Virus record (IMG/VR): IMGVR_UViG_3300027963_005443
Direction: 5' to 3' (one strand)
Length of the DNA stretch: 64,000 nucleotides
Origin: a virus
In this document: in pieces, positions 37,824 to 64,000 of the stretch
Position numbering within the stretch: position 1 is the first letter of the stretch
How the letters are laid out: every line of letters starts with the position of its first letter
Notes under the pieces: generated by a model
Databases searched by the model: none
Told to the model about the DNA's origin: nothing
The model's input: the letters and a program-made list of their open reading frames with translations, nothing else
Program-made: the position numbers and the translations under genes

Positions 37824-39116
37824 TTAAATTCCGCCCTCGTATCGATCAACCCAGCCAGCACTCTTAGAATGCATCCATACAACCCATTTTTGTGGCTTGA
37901 CCTCACAATTAAATTCTCTCCACACCTTTAAATAATCTTTATCTTGCTTCATCATGTTTATTTCATTTTCATCGGCATCTCTTCTGTTTATAACAGTTCC
38001 ATCATTCAATTCAAATGAAACTACCCAAAAATCATAGTCATCATGCTTTAATTGATTGTGATAAATATCAATACAGTGCTTGAATATCTTCAAGAAAGAA
38101 TTCTTGTAATCTTCATCATTATCTATTACAGGATTGGGAGGATTTTTTAAATCCAGGGTAAACTGCTGGACTGCTCTCATTTTAAAATTAAGTCCGCTAT
38201 ACCTCTCATACTCTTCCAAAGTTCTTTCTTTGCCAAAGTCATATGGACCGAAATCAATATCTTTTTTTTCTCCATCCATCTCGAATAATTTTCGATTTCT
38301 TCTATGACAGGTATCGTTCTTCTCTACCCAATTCTTATCGTCATCCCACTGTTTTGTTCTTCCTTGACGGGTATATTCATGCCAAGCAATTATCTTGTGA
38401 GGATGAAATAGATCATAACCACAAGTATATGCTCTTACTGCTATGCTAATCTCTTCTCCATGAAAATAATAGTTTGGATCGTGTTGAACTTCTTTAGCAA
38501 AACTGCCTGGGGCAAAACAAAAGTGAGCACTATAAAATCTAGCGGGGATTGGCTCTTTTAGATTTTGCCATCCTTCTATGTGTCCTGGCAAGAAGAATAC
38601 AGCTCCTTCGGGTATAAACCTGTCGAAATTCATTCTCCAAGGCTCTTGAACACGCTCTGCTGGGTCGTTCAATGGATTAAAACTTGGAATATACGAAGTG
38701 ATTAAAGGCTTCTTGTGTCCTTTTTGTTTTAATTGTTCGAGAATGTTTATGCATTCAGTGTCCCAATTTTTAACAAATCTATGGTGGCTATCTATTTGAA
38801 AAGTCCAATCTTCTCCTCCATAGCTCTGTTGGGTTAGGTTTCGTGCCCAACAAACACCACGACTATCTGTGTGTTTAATATCCAATATTATAAATCTTGG
38901 ATCATTTTTATATTCGTCTAAATTATCCCAAACATCTTCTGATGAATGTTGCCATGCGATGCAAATTTTTAAATTCTCAGGATGCTCGGCATTTGCAATC
39001 ATATCTCTGAGAGTGTGAATTAACTGATTATCTCTATATGATGCTATTTGTACATATATAGAGTTTTTCTTAACATCATTTGAATTGCCAATAGTTTTAT
39101 TTTTCTTCTTTTTCAT
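37824..39116 (-). CDS. GT60-like (GlcNAc family, Skp1 Gnt1 / ppGalNAc-T-related) glycosyltransferase
   Basis: IYVQIASYRD, SRGVCWARNLTQ..YGGE, FQIDSHHRFVKNWD (DxH), FYSAHFCF, YFHGEEISIAVRAYTCGYD. Confidence 0.8.
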   Translation of the reverse strand: MKKKKNKTIGNSNDVKKNSIYVQIASYRDNQLIHTLRDMIANAEHPENLKICIAWQHSSEDVWDNLDEYKNDPRFIILDIKHTDSRGVCWARNLTQQSYGGEDWTFQIDSHHRFVKNWDTECINILEQLKQKGHKKPLITSYIPSFNPLNDPAERVQEPWRMNFDRFIPEGAVFFLPGHIEGWQNLKEPIPARFYSAHFCFAPGSFAKEVQHDPNYYFHGEEISIAVRAYTCGYDLFHPHKIIAWHEYTRQGRTKQWDDDKNWVEKNDTCHRRNRKLFEMDGEKKDIDFGPYDFGKERTLEEYERYSGLNFKMRAVQQFTLDLKNPPNPVIDNDEDYKNSFLKIFKHCIDIYHNQLKHDDYDFWVVSFELNDGTVINRRDADENEINMMKQDKDYLKVWREFNCEVKPQKWVVWMHSKSAGWVDRYEGGI

Positions 39117-40166: not shown

Positions 40167-40193
40167 GTTTTTTTTCCTATATTGGATGCTTAG

Positions 40194-40222
40194 ATAATAT
40201 GTTATTTCACAAACAAAATCAA
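40194..40222 (-). promoter_or_regulatory. sigma70-like promoter
   Basis: TTGATT-17 bp-TATTAT on the minus strand. Confidence 0.55.
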
Positions 40223-40289
40223 TAGTATCTTTAAAATATTGATTTAAACAAACTATTATAAGTATAAATCAAGCACAAATACACGAAAA

Positions 40290-42686
40290 ATGTCTTCTTT
40301 AATAAATAATAAAAAAAGTTTTAAAATAAAAACTAACGATAACTCTTGGAGATCATTAGGATCTCTGCATATAGACAATAATTCTTTTTTATATTTAAAA
40401 TTTAAAATATTAGGTAAATACGACTATAATCAATATAAAATTTATGAAGAAAATATAGTAATAAATTTATTCGAAGGCAATTTAAACGTTATCGATAGAC
40501 AAGTTGCGGCAAATTCTGGGTCTGTTGATGCGGAAGTTTCAATATTTCCAGATTTTGGCCCACTAAGAACATATAGAGGGGCAAATTATCAATCATCCAC
40601 CATAGGAGCATCTACAAGATACACAGACTATCCAAATGCATCTTTTAGCTATCTTGGATTCAGACTAGCGTCATTAACAAATCCATATGGACATATTTAT
40701 ACTGGAAATCCGACAGATTTTTCTGCTTATGTTTTGGTGGGAGACAGTAAAAATGAACCTAATAAATATGGAAAAAGCGCAACAGTAAATGGATTGGGAG
40801 GAGTATCCTATGATTACTATATTCGTAGATGTCCAATAACAAACAATGAATATGCTGAATTCTTAAATTCAGTAACAACTGGATTTGTTGATCCATATGG
40901 TCTTTTCGACAATAGAATGAGCACAGATCCTTCGGGAGGAATATTAAAATCAGGAAGTGATTTTGTTGCAAAAACTGGGATGGGGACCAAGCCAGTTAAT
41001 TTCGTAAATTGGTTCAGTTGTGCACGTTTCTGTAATTGGATGCATAGCAATAAATCGGCAGTTGGTACTGAGAGCGGAGCCTATAAATTAAATGGCGCAA
41101 CCAGCGGAATATTTAAAGCCAATCCAGAAAGCAAATATAGACTTCCAACTGAAGATGAGTGGTATAAAGCAGCATATTATGATGGATCTTTATTATATTA
41201 TAATTACTCTACCCAAAGCAACACAATACCAGATCCAGTTTTGGCGAGCAATAATGGGAATGCAATATCCACGGGTAATTCAGCTAATTATAATAACAAA
41301 GCACTTTATGATGGATTTCCAATACCAACAGGAATAGGACGCTCCAAAGTAACAACAGTGGCAACTAACGGAGATCCTAGTTATTATGGAACTACTGACC
41401 AGGATGGAAACGTATCTGAATGGACTGATGCATTAGACAACAGAATGACAATATCTGTGAAGGGTGAATCAGGTTCAAACATATTGTGGAAAGGTGAAAT
41501 TGAAGTACTTGATATATTATCCAAGGAAGGTGGCGGGATGGGACAACCTAAAGTTCCGCCAACGCCCACACTTACCGCTACAATATCAACACCAACACCT
41601 ACTAAGACACCAGTAACACCAACACCTACTAAGACACCAGTAACACCAACACCTACAATAACACCTACGCTGACGAGGACGCCCACAGGCACAGCTGTCG
41701 CAACTCAGACCCCAACATTAACCCACACAAAGAGTACTCCGACAATAACAGCGACAAGAACACAAGCAGCCACAAGAACTCCTACTCGTACACCAACATT
41801 AACCTCAACACCAACATTAACCGGCACGCCCACACTGACACCCACATTAACTTCTACAAAAACATTAACTCCAACATTAACACTAACTCCAACAAAGACA
41901 AGCACGCCAACATTAACAAGAAGTAATGGAGGTGGCCCATTGCCAACTCAAACAATGACAGCCACATTGACGCAAACATTAAACGATGGATCAATAATTT
42001 GCGGAGACACAGACAGTGGAGGAGGACCCGTAACAACCACTACTACAACAGTTGGACCAACTACAACCGCTGGGCCAACCACAACCACAACCACAACTAC
42101 CGTTGCTCCGTGCCCCGGTGATAGTATAAATTATATTCTAGGTTTATGCCTAGGGCCTATTTCGGGTGGCATCTGCAGTCAACAAAGTAGCGGGAACTTA
42201 AGCGTTAAATATATACAAAATGATGTACTTAATCCTAACTACGGACTTTTAGACACAACAAGTTGCAACCAAGTTACAGTACATTATTTAGCAAGTTCTA
42301 GGGCAGACTCAATAAGTAACTATTCAATTGGAGAAGTAAGAGCCACCAGAGTAACACCTTCTGGGTTGGGGGCCAGTCAAACTATATTCACATTTGATTA
42401 TGCGACATCAACACAAACTCCCGCTGGGGCTGGGCCATTCCTGCCTACTGCAAACGGATATGATTGGGAGCCCACTATAAACTCTGCAGTATTATTAAAT
42501 GCATTCGGAATAACAAGTTCCGGAGAATACATATTCCTCGTAGAGTATAGGGCATATAATTGCAATGGAACTTCTGATTGGCGAAGAATAGGTGATATTG
42601 ATGAAAGCGGTCCATTATGTAACGAGGTTCCCGGGGCAGGTGGAATTTACAAAGTTTGCGGAACAATAACAGTAACTGTACCCTAA
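40290..42686 (+). CDS. protein with circularly permuted FGE-sulfatase (SUMF1/EgtB/PvdO, CLec-fold) domain, TPT linker and C-terminal domain
   Basis: RG.N...GFRLAS precedes VLVGD..N...YDYYIRRCPITNNEYAEFLNSV...KPVNFVNWFSCARFCNW...LPTEDEWYKAAYY...SYYGTTDQDGNVSEW. Confidence 0.85.
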   Translation: MSSLINNKKSFKIKTNDNSWRSLGSLHIDNNSFLYLKFKILGKYDYNQYKIYEENIVINLFEGNLNVIDRQVAANSGSVDAEVSIFPDFGPLRTYRGANYQSSTIGASTRYTDYPNASFSYLGFRLASLTNPYGHIYTGNPTDFSAYVLVGDSKNEPNKYGKSATVNGLGGVSYDYYIRRCPITNNEYAEFLNSVTTGFVDPYGLFDNRMSTDPSGGILKSGSDFVAKTGMGTKPVNFVNWFSCARFCNWMHSNKSAVGTESGAYKLNGATSGIFKANPESKYRLPTEDEWYKAAYYDGSLLYYNYSTQSNTIPDPVLASNNGNAISTGNSANYNNKALYDGFPIPTGIGRSKVTTVATNGDPSYYGTTDQDGNVSEWTDALDNRMTISVKGESGSNILWKGEIEVLDILSKEGGGMGQPKVPPTPTLTATISTPTPTKTPVTPTPTKTPVTPTPTITPTLTRTPTGTAVATQTPTLTHTKSTPTITATRTQAATRTPTRTPTLTSTPTLTGTPTLTPTLTSTKTLTPTLTLTPTKTSTPTLTRSNGGGPLPTQTMTATLTQTLNDGSIICGDTDSGGGPVTTTTTTVGPTTTAGPTTTTTTTTVAPCPGDSINYILGLCLGPISGGICSQQSSGNLSVKYIQNDVLNPNYGLLDTTSCNQVTVHYLASSRADSISNYSIGEVRATRVTPSGLGASQTIFTFDYATSTQTPAGAGPFLPTANGYDWEPTINSAVLLNAFGITSSGEYIFLVEYRAYNCNGTSDWRRIGDIDESGPLCNEVPGAGGIYKVCGTITVTVP

Positions 42687-42696
42687 ATAAAATATT

Positions 42697-45600
42697 ATGA
42701 GTAATAAAGCTAAACATCAATATACGTTAAATCTTGGAAATTGCACCGGTACATTCATTTTAAATTATGATGCATCAAATCCACCTAACGTAGCATCAGT
42801 TCCTGTAAGATTCACAGTAGAGTGGAACGGAAAAATAACAACCTCTGGTTTTGTGGGAGATCATGCACATGACCTACAATTATCTGCTCTTGGATTCCCT
42901 GCGGTCAACTCATCACCAAGAGACAATCCAGTTGGATCTTTTACGATAAATAAAAATTTGTCTTCACCTCCAACAGCAACACTAACAGTTGATTCACCTT
43001 TGTCTGGGGCTATTTGGACTTTTGGACTTAGTTGCAACTTAACAGTTTGTCCAACAACTACAACGACCACGACTACAACGACCACGACTACAACGACCAC
43101 GACTACAGCAGCACCGGGCACTACAGCAGCACCGGGCACTACAGCAGCACCGGGCACTACAGCAGCACCGGGCACTACAGCAGCACCGGGAACCCCGTGC
43201 GTTAATTGTGGAGGAGCAGGTGCTCATGGTGCCGGTCCTGGGGTCGGAGGAGGTGGGGGTGCGGGTGGTGCGGGAGGTGGTGCGGGAGGTGGTGCAGGTG
43301 CGGGTGCAGGAGGCGGTGGTGCGGGTGCAGGAGGCGGTGGTGCAGGTGCAGGAGGAGGTGGTGGTGCTGCAAGAGGTATTCCTCAATACCACCTTTATTC
43401 TTGGGGCGCAAATAGCTCCAGCCAAATTGGAGATGGAACTCTATCAGATAAATTAACGCCCATAAACATAGGATCCTACTCGGCAAGTAGCTACACAGTT
43501 TCTACTGGATATAGTCATTCCATGATACTTGTAGATAATGAACTATACATGTGGGGAAGCAACGTAAAAGGTCAACTTGGAAATAATACGAATATTGACC
43601 TTTTAACTCCCTCCAGAACCGGATTGATTTTATCCTCTAATTCGGCAACTCCTTGGACAGCAGCTTCAACTTCTGCTCCTATAAAAATTAAATTTGAAAA
43701 CGGAAAGTTTGTCGGTATTAACGGAAAAACATCTAACGATACCGGCGCTAGCTGGGCGAGTAGTTCGGTGACCATGAGCAATACACCAGTGTTTGGAAAT
43801 GGGACCTGGGTTGCGTGGAACTATTATTATAGTAGAGGACTATACTCAGAGACATCAGAGGTCCGTCCGTATACAAGTCCAGATGGAACCAATTGGTCTC
43901 AACAGACCTCCTTGCCATACACAATAGATACCGGATCCTTGTCCATAGGAAAGCCCACTAATAGTCACTACTTACCAGGTGTGCAACCTATATCTTTTGT
44001 CAATGGAAAGTTTTTTGGATTCATTGGAACTAAAGGCAAAGGATCTCCAAAAAATGTAATCCCATTATATTCCACAGACGGCGACACATACGACAGAGGA
44101 ACAACATCTGGGTTGGTCTATGTTGACCAGTGGAACGGAGCAACAGCATATGCAGACCTATGCGAAGTAAGAGGAATAGCCAACAGCCCGCCTTTGCTTG
44201 GCGGCATTGGTGGCCCAACCATGTCAGTAGCAGTTGGTCGTGGATTGAATGGGAATTTAGCTAATTCATCGATAAAAACCAGTAAGTGCATACGCTCAAC
44301 AGATCAAATTAATTGGACCGCAACTACACTGCCTTTTGCAGCAATGTGGAATGGGATAGCTTATGGAAATGGAAGATTTGTGGCGGTTTGTGATGGTGCC
44401 GATGCTGCAACTAGCACAGATGGAATTAATTGGGTGACTATTAAAATGCCATCTACATTAAACTGGACAGACATTGCTTTTGGAAATGGTATTTGGGTAG
44501 CAGTTGGAGGACCGTCTTCTGTGGTGGCTGTTTCTAAGGATGGTGTAAATTGGAGTAAGGTCACTACTCTGCCTGTTTCGGCCACCTGGTCTGGTGTCGC
44601 CTATGGCAACAATAAATTCCTCATAACTAGCACAAAAGGCGTTTCACTAATCGCTGATTCATTCACAGTCAGTTCTAATTTAAGACCGGGCGATTTCAAA
44701 TACGCAACACTTGGAAAAAGACACTCTGTAGGTATAAGTCCGGCAGGATTTATGTATACTTGGGGAGATAATTCATACGGTCAATTGGGAGATGGAACTA
44801 ATGTAGATAAAAAAATACCCACAAAAATAACAAGTGTAAACAATGGATCTAGTATAAAGAGTGCCCCAGCGTGGTCATATGTGGCGGCAAGTAATCATAA
44901 TTTAGCAATAACTAAATCAGGAGCTTTATATGCTTGGGGAAATAATAACAACGGTCAATTAAGCAGTGGGGTGACCGTTACAACCACAACAGGTTCACCA
45001 ATCACAACAACAGTCGCACCGGCTTATTTGTCCGTGCCGTTATTAATAGATTCGGGCAAATGGTATGATGTAGATGTTGGTAATAGCCATTCTATGGGAT
45101 TGAAATGGGATGCAAGCCAAACAAATTTAGAACTATACACATGGGGATCTAATCAATACGGACAATTAGGAGATGGAACAAACAACTCTAGTTCGGATCT
45201 TTTAAGGGTTCCCGATCCCCCGGGCTCTACTTGGGCAGCAATAGCCTGCGGTACAAATCACTCAATGGCATTAGATGCCAACGGACAGTTATACACATGG
45301 GGAAGGAATAATCATGGCCAATTAGGAGATGGAACAATTATTGATAAAAATTCTCCGGTATCACCAGCAAGCTCTATAATATTTAATTTAATAGATGGTG
45401 GCGGAGATAAGTCAATAGCGGCAGATGAATTTAAAAATCTATATTCTTGGGGAGAAAATTCTTCAGGAGAATTAGGCTATAACACATTGGTTGACAATAA
45501 AAATATAGTAAAAAATACTTATCTGGAGAATATTTTAGAAGTATCAATAGGAGATCATCATTCAATTGCACTATCTATAGATCCGCCAAAAGTTATAAAT

Positions 45601-48201
45601 AACAGCATATGGGCAAATGCATCGTCTTCTGCTCCTGTGCGGGTTGCATTTGAGGATGGACAATTTACGGGCAACGACATCAGAATGTCTTATGATGGAG
45701 GATTTAATTGGCAAACAACTGATATAGATTTTAGCTATGCACATAATTTCACTACACCGGTATTTGGAGGAGGAACTTGGGTAACATGGAAACATTTTTA
45801 TGTCAGTGGATCCACAATATATAATAACGCAGTACTAACTTCAGAAATCTCAGAAATCAGGCCCTACACAAGTCCGGATGGCATTAATTGGTCGCAACAA
45901 ACTACCCTATCTTATAAACTAAATAATGGTTATCCATCGATCTCAACACCATCTAATTCTCACTCTGCGGCCGGTGTTCAAACAATGTCGTTTATCAATG
46001 GAAAGTTTTTTGGTTTTATCGGGACTAGGGGTAAGGGGTCTCCAAAAAATGTAAAAGTATCATATTCCACAAATGGAGATACGTGGACACAAGGATCTGT
46101 AACAGGTTTAAACTATGTTGATCAGTGGAATGGAGCAACAGCATATGCAGATCTATGTGAAATCAGAGGTATAGCTAATAGCCCAACCATGTCAGTAGCA
46201 GTTGGCCGTGGATTAAGTGGAAATTTAACAACATCTCCAATCACAACCAATAAGTGCATACGCTCAACAGATCAAATTAATTGGGCCGCAACTACGTTGC
46301 CTTTTGCAGCGGTGTGGAATGGAGTAGCTTATGGCGATGGAAGATTTGTTGCTGTGTGTGATGGATCAAGAGCCGCTACCAGCACAGATGGAATTAATTG
46401 GACTTCTATTAATATGCCATCAACTTTAAATTGGACTAGTGTTGCATATGGAAATGGGAAATGGATCGCAGTTGGAGGACCATCTTCGGTGGCCGCTACA
46501 TCGACAAATGGAATAAATTGGACAAAAATTACATTGCCAATATCTGCTGTTTGGTCTAGTGTGGCGTATGGAAATGGAGATTTCCTTATAACTAGTACTA
46601 CCGGAACATCTTTGAGAGGATTGACTAGCCCCACAACAACAATTTCCCCTGCATCGAGAGCGGGAATAGCTCCTCGTGTTCCTACTGGACCACTACCTTG
46701 TTGTCCCTCCGGTGCTCCGAATACTTCCGGAGAGACTCATTTACACAATATTGGAAAAAGTTGGGCCTCGCCGCTCTCTCCTGTAGTATGGGACGACAAT
46801 GTGGTTGGACCCTACTGGATGATTGAGTGGTATGAGGTTGACAGTAACGATGGGGTGCACGCCTGGATTTCTAAAAGAGAGGCCGTGTGTCTATTTCCGG
46901 GGACAAACAGAATAGATGGTGTAGTAAGAGTAGGATCGCCTAAAGGATGCACGTTAAGTGCAACTGTAAACAAAACATGGAAACCAGATATAAGTTGCAA
47001 CCCACTTTGCACAGAAACCGAAACGGGCATGGGTCTTAAGGCAAACTTCAATTATAATGTCATTAAAAATCTTAAAGGATTTGGAGGAATGCATTGGGTA
47101 AACACACAATATGTAGCAAGTCTAAATAATATTAGTTTCCCAACCAATGGGATTATAGGACCGCTCGGCGCAGGAGCTAGTGTTTGTGGATCAAGCTGCG
47201 CCTACAGAGTATATGATAATAATTACATGGGTGCGCTTGATGGTTTTACCTTGGGATTAATGAACAACCAACCAGGATCAATGACTGCAGAAGCTAGTAA
47301 TGTAATTGGTAACCTTGCCTGTTTACAGACTAGGCTAAGCGGAAAAACATGTGGAGGCCAACCAAAAATAAATTTTCATCTAAGCAAAGAAGATAAAAAA
47401 TATAGAGAATCTTTATATCCGGTAGCAGCTACAAACAACCGTGATGATGATCCACCTTGCTGCTCTGCTGATGATATGGTGCGTGGGTCAGAGGAATGCG
47501 GTGGAGGGGAAGGGCCCACATTAGACCCGCCAACTGAGTGTCCGGATACACCTTGTGCTTGCCATTACACAACAGACGGCAATCCCGACTGCACTATGTT
47601 GGCTCCAGGGGATCTATCTACATGTAGTTTAATTTATAATGGAATTCTCACCTGTGATTGCTCTGGGAGCTGTAACCCAGATGATCCACCTCCTACATAT
47701 AGTTGGTGGAGGTGCACAGGCGATGGGAATTGCTGTCAGGCTGGGGTCGATGATGGATGTGAACCATGCGACAACAACGATGAAGATTGCTATGGCGGAT
47801 ATGGGGCAAATTCTTCATGCAATAATAATTGCAATAATGAAACCACTCCCCCGCCGCCGACTGATGGTTGGTGGAGATGCACAGGCGATGGAAGTTGCTG
47901 CCATGCCGGGGTCGACAACGGCTGCGCTGCTTGTAATGATCAAGATTTGGATTGCTATAGCGGAAATTCAGCGCAGAGTGATTGCAGCAGAAATTGCGAT
48001 CAACCAACAACTACACCATCTCCACCACCTCCGCCTGATAATTGTACTGTTGAAAATTGTGGAGGGAATCCTTGCTCCAGCCCCTCAGATAAATGCTGCG
48101 GAGACAATGCTGGTAACTGTAGTTGTTGCTCAGAAATTACTTGGGTTTGTTGCCCAGATCAAATATATTGCGCAGCATCACTAGGAGATTGTCCTCCTTA
48201 G
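42697..48201 (+). CDS. 1834-aa modular protein: N-domain, Gly tract, 7 RCC1 repeats interrupted by a propeller, duplicated propeller, Cys-rich tail ending in the 12-Cys module
   Basis: 7 LY.WG.N..GQLG repeats; W....LP....W.GIAYGNGRFVAV repeats in two copies; C-terminal WVCCPDQIYCAASLGDCPP. Confidence 0.85.
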   Translation: MSNKAKHQYTLNLGNCTGTFILNYDASNPPNVASVPVRFTVEWNGKITTSGFVGDHAHDLQLSALGFPAVNSSPRDNPVGSFTINKNLSSPPTATLTVDSPLSGAIWTFGLSCNLTVCPTTTTTTTTTTTTTTTTTTAAPGTTAAPGTTAAPGTTAAPGTTAAPGTPCVNCGGAGAHGAGPGVGGGGGAGGAGGGAGGGAGAGAGGGGAGAGGGGAGAGGGGGAARGIPQYHLYSWGANSSSQIGDGTLSDKLTPINIGSYSASSYTVSTGYSHSMILVDNELYMWGSNVKGQLGNNTNIDLLTPSRTGLILSSNSATPWTAASTSAPIKIKFENGKFVGINGKTSNDTGASWASSSVTMSNTPVFGNGTWVAWNYYYSRGLYSETSEVRPYTSPDGTNWSQQTSLPYTIDTGSLSIGKPTNSHYLPGVQPISFVNGKFFGFIGTKGKGSPKNVIPLYSTDGDTYDRGTTSGLVYVDQWNGATAYADLCEVRGIANSPPLLGGIGGPTMSVAVGRGLNGNLANSSIKTSKCIRSTDQINWTATTLPFAAMWNGIAYGNGRFVAVCDGADAATSTDGINWVTIKMPSTLNWTDIAFGNGIWVAVGGPSSVVAVSKDGVNWSKVTTLPVSATWSGVAYGNNKFLITSTKGVSLIADSFTVSSNLRPGDFKYATLGKRHSVGISPAGFMYTWGDNSYGQLGDGTNVDKKIPTKITSVNNGSSIKSAPAWSYVAASNHNLAITKSGALYAWGNNNNGQLSSGVTVTTTTGSPITTTVAPAYLSVPLLIDSGKWYDVDVGNSHSMGLKWDASQTNLELYTWGSNQYGQLGDGTNNSSSDLLRVPDPPGSTWAAIACGTNHSMALDANGQLYTWGRNNHGQLGDGTIIDKNSPVSPASSIIFNLIDGGGDKSIAADEFKNLYSWGENSSGELGYNTLVDNKNIVKNTYLENILEVSIGDHHSIALSIDPPKVINNSIWANASSSAPVRVAFEDGQFTGNDIRMSYDGGFNWQTTDIDFSYAHNFTTPVFGGGTWVTWKHFYVSGSTIYNNAVLTSEISEIRPYTSPDGINWSQQTTLSYKLNNGYPSISTPSNSHSAAGVQTMSFINGKFFGFIGTRGKGSPKNVKVSYSTNGDTWTQGSVTGLNYVDQWNGATAYADLCEIRGIANSPTMSVAVGRGLSGNLTTSPITTNKCIRSTDQINWAATTLPFAAVWNGVAYGDGRFVAVCDGSRAATSTDGINWTSINMPSTLNWTSVAYGNGKWIAVGGPSSVAATSTNGINWTKITLPISAVWSSVAYGNGDFLITSTTGTSLRGLTSPTTTISPASRAGIAPRVPTGPLPCCPSGAPNTSGETHLHNIGKSWASPLSPVVWDDNVVGPYWMIEWYEVDSNDGVHAWISKREAVCLFPGTNRIDGVVRVGSPKGCTLSATVNKTWKPDISCNPLCTETETGMGLKANFNYNVIKNLKGFGGMHWVNTQYVASLNNISFPTNGIIGPLGAGASVCGSSCAYRVYDNNYMGALDGFTLGLMNNQPGSMTAEASNVIGNLACLQTRLSGKTCGGQPKINFHLSKEDKKYRESLYPVAATNNRDDDPPCCSADDMVRGSEECGGGEGPTLDPPTECPDTPCACHYTTDGNPDCTMLAPGDLSTCSLIYNGILTCDCSGSCNPDDPPPTYSWWRCTGDGNCCQAGVDDGCEPCDNNDEDCYGGYGANSSCNNNCNNETTPPPPTDGWWRCTGDGSCCHAGVDNGCAACNDQDLDCYSGNSAQSDCSRNCDQPTTTPSPPPPPDNCTVENCGGNPCSSPSDKCCGDNAGNCSCCSEITWVCCPDQIYCAASLGDCPP

Positions 48202-62113: not shown

Positions 62114-64000
62114 CTAAGTTTGGTTACAGGTGATTTCATTGCTTAATTCCCAACCGACATACCGACCATCTGCGTTACCGCAACCAGAGTCCATGGATGT
62201 TGAGCAAAAAGTTGCAGAATTATACGGTGAATCATTTACATACAATGCGGGCACATCGCAGATTTTTGTGCTTACGGGATGCGAAGACATATATGTCCCA
62301 AAGCTATCTATAACTACTCCACAATTGCAACCGTAATTAATGTTTTGCCATTCTACCACGAAGTATCCAGTATCGGCAGTGGGACCGGCTGAACAGCTAT
62401 CATTATCTATGAATTTAGCAGTCTTATACCAATTAAGAGATCCATCAAAAGCTTGAAACCCATTTCCTCCACTAGGACAACAACATTTAACTCCATCAAT
62501 TCCGTTTGACACATCAAAATATATTGTTTCAGGAGGACCCATATATTTTATAGACGCCAATGAACAAGGATTGGTAAGACTATCATCGTTATTTAGTTGG
62601 TAGCTTGCAATATTTATTCTGCCATAATTTCCATTATTATTAGCTTGTGATAATACCGTTCTTACTTGATTATTGCTTCTAAATAAATAGTTTGGATTAA
62701 ATCTTTTTATTACCATTTTGCTTAATGGACAAGTGCTGAATGTCTCTGATCCTTGGAAATGAGCTGTAGGATGGCCTATAAATATGCCGCCTATAGTATC
62801 ATTTAAACTCAAATCCACAGTTCCTAAATTATTATTATTAAGATAAAGATCAATATTGTCGTCTTTGGCAGCATTTGAATTACAAATCCATACCACAACC
62901 ACACGACAATAACACTTATATGGAACTGGCGATTTTGTTAGGGTTAAGGTTGCAGTTTTAGTTGGTGTCAGTGTTGGTGTTGATGTCAGTGTTGGAGTAA
63001 GTGTTGGGGTAAGTGTAAGTGTTGGAGTAGGAGTAGGAGGAGGCAAAGCAATACAAACCTCATTTGACATGCAAGGCTTTTTGCAAAATACCCTGAAACA
63101 TATTTCATTTGCTCCAACAGGACCATTGTTGGCTCCTACTTTCATATACTCGCTCAAGGACCCAGTTTCACAGTTTCCGCATCTACCTGGACGGAGGCAT
63201 ACGCACAGTTTATCAACGCTTCTTTGTGCAGAAACATAAGGCAACCCGTCCTGCTCATCGTTGGTACAGACAAAACTCGGCAAGTCATCACTTTGGGTGG
63301 CATACTTCCAGTAGCCAGAATTTAAACCATTACCCTTATAATAAGCAGCTTTGTACCATTCGTCTTCACTTGGTATCCAATACTTGGCATTAGTATTCTT
63401 TTCCACAATTCCACATTTTGGAACTATTCCATTGAGAGTATATGCTCCATCTTCTGTAGAAGAAGAATCAAGCATACCATTGTGAAGCCAATTACAAAAT
63501 CTAGCGCAGTCGTACCAATCCACAAGAACTACAGGTTTATTACACATTCTACTCTTTGTGGAATAAGTGTAATTTGGAGAAGATCCATTTCTCACTATAC
63601 CACAATTTACATTATATATATTATCATCTCCTTTATATAATCCGTAATCATCTTTCTTGGCAATACTATTTAAAAAAGAGCAATACTGTTTGTTGGTGAT
63701 AGAATATTTTCCTATTGAATACTTGTAAGAAACAGAACCAAATCCAGAATTTCCATTATCATCTACGGACATATCAGACCGATTATTCAAATCTTCAATA
63801 TCCATAAAGCGTATTCCGCTAAAAGACTCATCATTTAAAGTACAAAGCCTAAACCCTAATGATTCATGAAAAACATGTGCTCCCACCACTTTTGGATGGT
63901 TAGATGAGAGACCGTCTACATTCATCCAAGAACCACCTCTCCAGACTATGCAGGATTTATCCGAACAACCGGCAACATTATTTTCTGCCCAATCTAAAGT
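62114..64000 (-). CDS. FGE-sulfatase-domain protein (5' truncated by the window edge) + TPT linker + Cys-rich C-domain
   Basis: Frame open from 64000: ...IVWRGGSW...LGFRL then GFGSVSYKYSIGKYSITN...KPVVLVDWYDCARFCNWLHNG...PSEDEWYKAAYY. Confidence 0.8.
   Translation of the reverse strand, partial: TLDWAENNVAGCSDKSCIVWRGGSWMNVDGLSSNHPKVVGAHVFHESLGFRLCTLNDESFSGIRFMDIEDLNNRSDMSVDDNGNSGFGSVSYKYSIGKYSITNKQYCSFLNSIAKKDDYGLYKGDDNIYNVNCGIVRNGSSPNYTYSTKSRMCNKPVVLVDWYDCARFCNWLHNGMLDSSSTEDGAYTLNGIVPKCGIVEKNTNAKYWIPSEDEWYKAAYYKGNGLNSGYWKYATQSDDLPSFVCTNDEQDGLPYVSAQRSVDKLCVCLRPGRCGNCETGSLSEYMKVGANNGPVGANEICFRVFCKKPCMSNEVCIALPPPTPTPTLTLTPTLTPTLTSTPTLTPTKTATLTLTKSPVPYKCYCRVVVVWICNSNAAKDDNIDLYLNNNNLGTVDLSLNDTIGGIFIGHPTAHFQGSETFSTCPLSKMVIKRFNPNYLFRSNNQVRTVLSQANNNGNYGRINIASYQLNNDDSLTNPCSLASIKYMGPPETIYFDVSNGIDGVKCCCPSGGNGFQAFDGSLNWYKTAKFIDNDSCSAGPTADTGYFVVEWQNINYGCNCGVVIDSFGTYMSSHPVSTKICDVPALYVNDSPYNSATFCSTSMDSGCGNADGRYVGWELSNEITCNQT

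Follow-up and report, generated by a model that had tools for sequence, protein, structure and literature searches.

We examined a gene in the DNA of a virus (IMG/VR virus record IMGVR_UViG_3300027963_005443; the whole 64,000-nucleotide stretch analysed is called the window) and found that its product carries an FGE-sulfatase/C-type-lectin-fold domain (FGE, formylglycine-generating enzyme) that is circularly permuted in the surface loop between the motifs GNVxEW and RG. The gene lies at positions 40290..42686 of the plus strand and encodes 798 amino acids (aa) plus a stop codon, according to the list of open reading frames (ORFs). The segment that closes the canonical domain, RG..GFR, stands here before the rest of it, as the first-pass annotation of this sequence had proposed. 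We also favour, at a probability of roughly 60%, a reading in which the first ~411 residues would make up a nested two-domain head, with the permuted lectin-fold domain shown from a loop of a beta-sandwich. Among the ligand-binding scaffolds of bacteria and phages, the FGE-sulfatase/C-type-lectin fold is a major one, and diversity-generating retroelements (DGRs) target it more than any other.

Segment order of the permuted domain

The domain comprises four stretches, all on the plus strand. First comes a moved piece termed R (RGxxY...GFR; aa 89-128, 40554..40673), made up of the ~40 residues with which the FGE fold ends in its canonical order. A connector of 18 residues (aa 129-146, 40674..40727), lying between the two profile matches described below, bridges the old ends of the domain, GFRLAS at the C-terminus and YVLVGD at the N-terminus. 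Then comes the core (aa 147-328, 40728..41273), the canonical N-terminal two thirds of the fold, which corresponds to positions 8 to ~185 of the canonical profile and presents the motifs V.VGD, FCNW, PTEDEWYKAAYY and STQS..P in this order. Finally, a piece that we delimited by a motif census of homologues and call A-E (NSANY...GNVSEWTD; aa 329-380, 41274..41429; profile positions ~185-231) runs on from the core in this protein, whereas it stands first in the common phage permuted form. The coordinates given in the first-pass annotation were exact, with LRTYRGANY...LGFRLAS at aa 92-128 (40563-40673) and GNVSEWTD at aa 373-380 (41406-41429).

The Pfam family PF03781 was assigned to aa 175-383 only, corresponding to profile positions 36-193 of 255 (55.6 bits, E 7.8e-15, above the gathering cut-off of 23.3 bits). 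Collinear coverage is not complete: the C-terminal third of the profile is missing after GNVSEW, and the terminal segment is found upstream instead. No Pfam family was detected for the moved piece alone, for either flank or for the C-terminal domain. We then compared the protein with a canonical profile of 274 positions, based on 67 canonical-order bacterial units, and obtained two matches in reversed order: aa 147-395 matched positions 8-245 (224.2 bits), and aa 92-127 matched positions 237-274 (5.5 bits, E 6e-4 for one sequence). When the sequence was rearranged in silico (aa 131-383 followed by aa 86-130), it gave one end-to-end match over positions 8-274 at 239.3 bits, thus scoring as the single domain that the first-pass annotation had expected. 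The core without the moved piece scored 220.9 bits, and 200 controls with a shuffled moved piece scored 222.8±1.5 bits with a maximum of 228.7, so that the rearranged score is ~11 standard deviations higher. A profile of one and a half units of the family covered aa 92-392 in one piece and nothing within the flanks. A phmmer search of the Protein Data Bank (PDB) aligned the Treponema denticola variable protein 1, TvpA, in the same reversed order (aa 221-378 with chain residues 84-228; aa 89-127 with 251-291), at a level that is not significant (E 0.91). The cut falls at profile positions ~231|237, which is the loop between GNVxEW and RG where the permutation point had been predicted. The existing Pfam model detects only 60% of the domain here, and rewired copies are under-annotated because database models assume one segment order.

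The same segment order recurs in independent metagenome contigs, which excludes an assembly artefact: we found it in L012/P0002 (96% identity), in L013 (84%), in L015 and in the fragment P0122 (~47%). In the 96% orthologue the moved piece shows no difference (100% identity). In L013, identities are 82% for the N-terminal flank, 85% for the moved piece, 90% for the core and 74% for the C-terminal flank. The flanks and the moved piece are ~50% identical in P0122, where the counterpart of the moved piece (RGYRGGNY...LGFRVAS, 52% identical) keeps both RG and GFR. The L012 and L015 orthologues share the start MSSLINNKK, and synteny is kept on the contigs of P0002 and L013.

An AlphaFold2 model of aa 1-430, built from a 105-row alignment of trimmed locus segments, had a mean predicted local distance difference test (pLDDT) score of 75.4 and a predicted template modelling (pTM) score of 0.75. 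The model confidently places aa 90-130 and 150-380 in one FGE fold (pLDDT 87-97), with values of 87-93 for the moved piece and mostly >90 for the core. The connector scored low (<50 at residues 135-140 and 142-144; the block 131-140 averages 48). Structure comparison of the model with VIA-align against 48,161 PDB chains recovered TvpA (2y3c; Z 12.2), CarF (12.1), ToxD (12.0), CalU17 (11.7) and EgtB (11.6), followed by PorK (11.3), PvdO (10.9) and pFGE (10.3). All these FGE-fold alignments run from model residue ~129-144 to ~383-389, the result that sequential alignment of a permuted domain necessarily gives. Foldseek with the 430-residue model found nothing in the PDB at E ≤ 0.001 and only weak matches to CarF, EgtB and FGE chains, a weakness that the permutation and the low confidence of the flanks probably explain; against BFVD it found only weak matches, to fibre-like viral proteins.

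The flanks and the predicted head

The N-terminal flank (aa 1-88, 40290..40553, plus strand) would form the opening part of the predicted host beta-sandwich, with six strands in the AlphaFold2 model (8-14, 21-27, 32-44, 48-61, 64-74 and 82-84; pLDDT 37-58 over aa 1-89). The C-terminal flank (aa 381-411, 41430..41522, plus strand) contributes two modelled strands (385-391 and 399-411; pLDDT 52-62 over aa 381-410), which rejoin the sandwich of the N-terminal flank. VIA-align matched ~35 beta-sandwich chains of the PDB over 80-120 residues, in a model range from ~2 to ~408-417. The best of them was a Klebsiella phage baseplate chain (9f4a_LA, Z 9.1, 113 residues aligned), and others were the Kp9 tail fibre (7xy1, Z 8.6) and end domains of Acinetobacter phage tailspikes (Z 6.4-7.7). 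Since the N-terminal flank has 88 residues and every matched range ends in the strand 399-411, the two flanks form one sandwich in the model. They must also leave the lectin-fold domain side by side, because the loop that was cut is only a few canonical-profile positions long (~231 vs 237).

In the architecture that we propose, the lectin-fold domain would extend over aa 89-~392, with its former last ~40 residues first (the ligand-facing segment, which is what DGRs diversify in proteins of the TvpA type) and the 18-residue connector leading to its former N-terminus. Its new ends would be adjacent and would lead into aa 1-88 and 385-411, which jointly would make a small beta-sandwich displaying the domain from a loop. 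The first-pass annotation had read the flanks as two halves of one beta domain; their all-beta character and their co-folding in the model and in the VIA-align matches agree with this, though at low confidence (pLDDT 50-58). The likeness that it had seen to a phage LKITVTG...IRWVA motif did not hold up, as a regular-expression scan of the six-frame ORFs of the window found none of LKITV, ITVTG and IRWVA, and the shorter string IRWV only in an unrelated ORF. We also considered the flanks as degenerate remnants of FGE units and rejected this as undetectable: the one-and-a-half-unit profile stops at aa 92 and 392, and hhalign comparisons of the flank alignments with the A-E piece, the R piece and the full unit gave probabilities <2%.

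The modelled sandwich matches weakly suggest that the lectin-fold domain is inserted into a loop of the sandwich formed by both flanks. The domain could instead be permuted without being nested, aa 1-88 being an independent N-terminal domain and aa 381-411 the start of a linker, with no host domain at all. This arrangement, which we hold to be unlikely but a serious competitor, would account for the short C-terminal flank (~30 residues), which leads straight into the Gly/Pro/Thr linker, and for the fact that flanks joined without the insert are seen in no homologue. Several of the same observations weigh against the nested head. The flank pLDDT of only 50-58 is based on four or five near-identical sequences, and the sandwich Z scores of 7-9 are near the aligner background, a level common for beta-sandwiches. 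The sequence record does not demonstrate that the host domain predates its insert, because the exhaustive profile search with the N-terminal flank found an uninterrupted host sandwich nowhere; the canonical packing of the moved piece, likewise, is what model confidence and profile scores point to. What tells against an unnested arrangement is that the sandwich matches reach model residues 408-417 and align 105-120 residues, more than the 88 of the N-terminal flank, that the short cut loop forces the junctions to be adjacent, and that the C-terminal flank is 74% conserved in L013 and has two long predicted strands.

The profile search with the N-terminal flank covered 1.84 billion representatives, and its sole homologue was the orthologue fragment P0122. 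A protein-atlas search with aa 1-88 gave no usable match, and tblastn and megablast against a phage collection gave no match even at E = 1. Paralogues of the flanks and of the C-terminal domain were sought within the window and none was found.

As to the function of the predicted head, the two catalytic cysteines of human FGE (SUMF1) lie in the segment after RGGS. There is no cysteine in aa 89-128 of the window protein, so the catalytic pair of FGE is absent. In TvpA, a binding protein without catalytic activity, the DGR variable region lies in the C-terminal segment (PMC5758913). Based on the absence of the cysteine pair, the lack of a template repeat in the window and the non-catalytic nature of TvpA, the head is best read as a fixed, non-hypermutated ligand-binding module, and the protein probably presents a non-enzymatic binding head on a Thr/Pro stalk. 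The head would bind a ligand on the host surface, probably a glycan, and would sit on the ~160-residue stalk together with a variable C-terminal domain, in a virion fibre or decoration protein.

The family name in Pfam and the best structural matches, among them EgtB, OvoA, PvdO and human pFGE, could also be taken to indicate an enzyme of the FGE/EgtB/PvdO kind, active in formylglycine generation or as a sulfoxide synthase. We find this scarcely credible: the segment that bears the catalytic pair in FGE has no cysteine, there is no DinB-type iron domain, the close relatives are surface or virion repeat proteins, and the best structural match, TvpA, is non-catalytic (PMC5758913). Nor does the protein look like a DGR target in which the variable region has shifted to the N-terminal side of the domain, a reading that we consider very improbable. 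The moved piece does match the variable-region-bearing end of TvpA-type targets (PMC5758913), in agreement with the first-pass annotation, which had called it the usual DGR variable region. Yet no second copy of 40500-40720 is present in the 64-kb window (the best chance match has 20 nucleotides), no reverse-transcriptase family was found among its ~30 larger ORFs in the Pfam or PHROGs scan, and the moved piece is conserved at 100% in the 96% orthologue and at 85% in L013.

We therefore keep a fixed binding head as the preferred function, with one further point on the other side. A conserved N-terminus combined with a variable C-terminus usually marks the N-terminus of a tail fibre as its virion-attachment end. 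In the window protein the N-terminal head is conserved and the C-terminal domain is variable (41% identity in L013), so the head is not fixed as the host-binding end. With this qualification, the gene directs attention to heads with which uncultured freshwater phages may bind their receptors.

Breakpoints across the family and origin

Among the best 121 homologues, 81 had a canonical start and end and 31 combined a late start with an early end, which makes these 31 units permuted. One breakpoint lies at profile position ~185 and gives the order NxANY..GNVxEW, RGG..GFR and V.VGD..ATQS..P. In L001, L002, L003 and L016 each unit cut there occurs alone, flanked by the start of the protein or by long Thr/Pro linkers; thus, the folding unit itself is permuted. 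Another breakpoint, at ~135-140 just before PTEDEWYKAAYY, was found in P0006, P0014, P0016, P0019 and L014 (2944-4143), proteins that start at profile position ~131-140 and end at ~138-148. Other permuted homologues, which the first-pass annotation had suggested looking for, were thus recovered at two other loops in phage relatives, among which permutation elsewhere is common; at least three breakpoints are in use in this family. The breakpoint at ~231|237 was confined to the orthologues of the window protein, among the 121 proteins and the ORFs of 92 loci. The unit of the window protein starts with RG...GFR and ends with GNVSEW, runs continuously from STQSNTIP to NSANY, and falls outside the definition of the ~185-cut family. 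In bacterial species-representative genomes (80 loci of Verrucomicrobiota, Planctomycetota and others), all 84 of the 84 complete units were canonical. Our literature search found no paper describing permuted FGE domains. The N-terminal motif MSNIFKINKKDNFFKIK of L014 resembles MSSLINNKKSFKIK of the window protein.

The window also holds a second FGE gene at its right edge (62114-64000, minus strand), which runs off the edge and has the common phage permuted phase. Its open frame carries RGGSW...GFR at aa 3-53 and a core at aa 63-257 (profile positions 6-192), followed by a Cys-rich segment, a Thr/Pro linker and a Cys-rich C-terminal domain. Two different breakpoints therefore occur in one phage. 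In another relative, an insertion interrupts the loop at which the window protein is cut: L008:3535-8613, a protein of 1692 residues encoded on an IMG/VR contig of 178 kb, has there ~645 residues containing Ig-like repeats, a poly-Pro run and an RCC1 propeller, with NxANY..GNVSEW at aa 135-185 and RGAN..GFRIAS plus the core at aa ~830-1060. Cut in one protein and expanded in another, the GNVxEW|RGG loop qualifies as a permissive site. Similarly, a canonical-order unit in L009 (5599 frame ORF) has an insertion of ~100 residues at ~192|195, the loop that is cut in the common permuted form.

We inferred a FastTree phylogeny (LG+gamma) from 419 core segments and 178 columns, leaving out units with >60 gaps and exact duplicates. 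The clade of the window protein (support 1.0) lies within clades dominated by permuted, mostly phage-like units (supports 0.86, 0.78 and 0.77). This placement suggests a second re-phasing within a lineage of permuted, mostly phage-like units, though the moderate supports and the midpoint root count against leaning on it heavily. The head would most likely have originated as an out-of-register slice of a tandem array, that is, by permutation through duplication, within that lineage.

Tandem arrays could also yield a less orderly product, in which aa 89-128 would be the relic of a lost upstream unit and the downstream FGE domain would be truncated, without its last strands. The homologues are indeed mostly tandem arrays, where R, core and E are contiguous across two units, and the start of the C-terminal flank after GNVSEW (VKGES; VRGES in L013) faintly recalls RGGS, the beginning of a second R piece, over five columns. 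That would-be second R piece has no GFR and falls short of significance (hhalign P 0.05, +3 bits), while the moved piece keeps RG and GFR, is 85% (L013) and 52% (P0122) conserved and is modelled at a pLDDT of ~90. Moreover, the single permuted units between Thr/Pro linkers in other phages indicate that the fold tolerates rewiring. On these grounds we judge a leftover slice to be quite improbable and prefer a complete, permuted domain.

More broadly, and stopping just short of even odds, we suggest that the fold has been permuted at three or more surface loops (~135-140, ~185 and ~231|237) and that the slicing of tandem arrays may be a recurrent, still-active route by which phages reach new display architectures. 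Among these architectures would be a binding head that has its ligand-facing segment in front and is set into a loop of a fibre-tip sandwich. If this is true, the family would document the permutation-by-duplication model with a natural series of unusual completeness, and would provide an existing scaffold on which binders can be displayed from loops. The rewiring in the window gene is a second and rarer one, in a phage where the common rewired form occurs as well, and is combined with an apparent insertion; it would exemplify how tandem repeats can yield circular permutants and nested domains in a datable, conserved case.

Gene context and comparison with known systems

The 798-residue protein has three parts: the predicted nested head (aa 1-411), a Gly/Thr/Pro-rich stalk (aa ~412-575) and an orphan C-terminal domain (aa 576-798). 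The stalk (aa 412-575, 41523..42014, plus strand) consists of a Gly-rich hinge and Thr/Pro-rich repeats, recognised from the sequence and from the direct DNA repeat families D3, D5 and D8; model pLDDT is <50 from aa 410 on. The C-terminal domain (aa 576-798, 42015..42683, plus strand) contains cysteines and has no Pfam match, and P0002 was its only homologue found in the search. It is the most divergent part between orthologues, with 41% identity in L013, where the NGYDWE...LLNAF...FLVE core and the CG.TVT.P end are kept. Its AlphaFold2 model was unusable (mean pLDDT 40.8). Upstream of the gene, 40167-40289 is an AT-rich divergent intergenic region, in which a Shine-Dalgarno sequence is not evident ahead of the start codon (acgaaaaATG).

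The window has the look of a segment from the genome of a large, uncultured freshwater phage. Neighbouring genes encode a match to the PHROGs 'minor tail protein' annotation, two giant RCC1-repeat proteins, DUF642 proteins and PhoH, together with a radical-SAM protein, an adenylosuccinate synthetase and a GT60-type GlcNAc transferase, and related genes were found on IMG/VR contigs of 95-206 kb. The GT60-type polypeptide GlcNAc transferase (37824-39116, minus strand; PF11397, E 6.5e-71) is encoded two genes upstream of a number of proteins with long Thr/Pro stalks, which this enzyme may possibly O-glycosylate. The next gene (42697-48201, plus strand) encodes 1834 residues with RCC1 repeats (PF00415, PF25390), poly-Thr, Gly/Ala runs and a Cys-rich tail, and contains an internal ~2-kb duplication (44213-44512 vs 46181-46480, 82%). 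The pairing of the FGE gene with the RCC1 gene is kept on the L013 and P0002 contigs. The P0002 contig (37.4 kb) carries, downstream of the syntenic block, an IS605 OrfB/TnpB-like gene (PF01385, PF07282).

We finally compared the window protein with known systems. TvpA was the top structural match (Z 12.2, root-mean-square deviation 3.5, 189 residues) and shares a non-enzymatic FGE fold, its C-terminal RGGSW...GFRLA corresponding to aa 89-128; it differs in keeping the canonical order, in being diversified by a DGR and in having no enclosing domain like the one predicted for the window protein. The closest cellular relatives are FGE surface proteins of Verrucomicrobiota and Planctomycetota, which are 35-49% identical over aa 147-382 and share the motifs V.VGNPGN, NW.HNG, PTEDEWYKAAYY, GNVWEW, RGGS and GFR. 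They have a signal peptide, one to three domains in canonical order and often a PEP-CTERM end. The predicted N-flank sandwich, Thr/Pro stalk and C-terminal domain of the window protein are all missing from them.

For the flanks, the top matches to the low-confidence model were distal sandwiches of phage tail fibres and tailspikes (Z 6.4-9.1, 104-121 residues): 9f4a_LA of the Klebsiella phage KP1 baseplate, 7xy1 of Kp9 gp42, and 6e1r, 5w5p, 8oq0 and 6c72 of Acinetobacter phage tailspikes. Those sandwiches are uninterrupted, C-terminal and without sequence similarity to the window protein, whereas the predicted sandwich of the latter would be N-terminal and split by an insert of ~300 residues. 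The closest clade in the core tree is that of the common phage permuted units (L001, L002, L003, L016 and the second FGE gene of the window), which share with the window protein the phage context, the Thr/Pro linkers, the non-enzymatic nature and a short connector between the canonical termini. They are cut at ATQS..P|NxANY (~185), while the window protein is cut ~50 residues later, at GNVSEW|RG; and they stand alone between linkers, whereas the unit of the window protein appears, in the model, to lie inside another domain.

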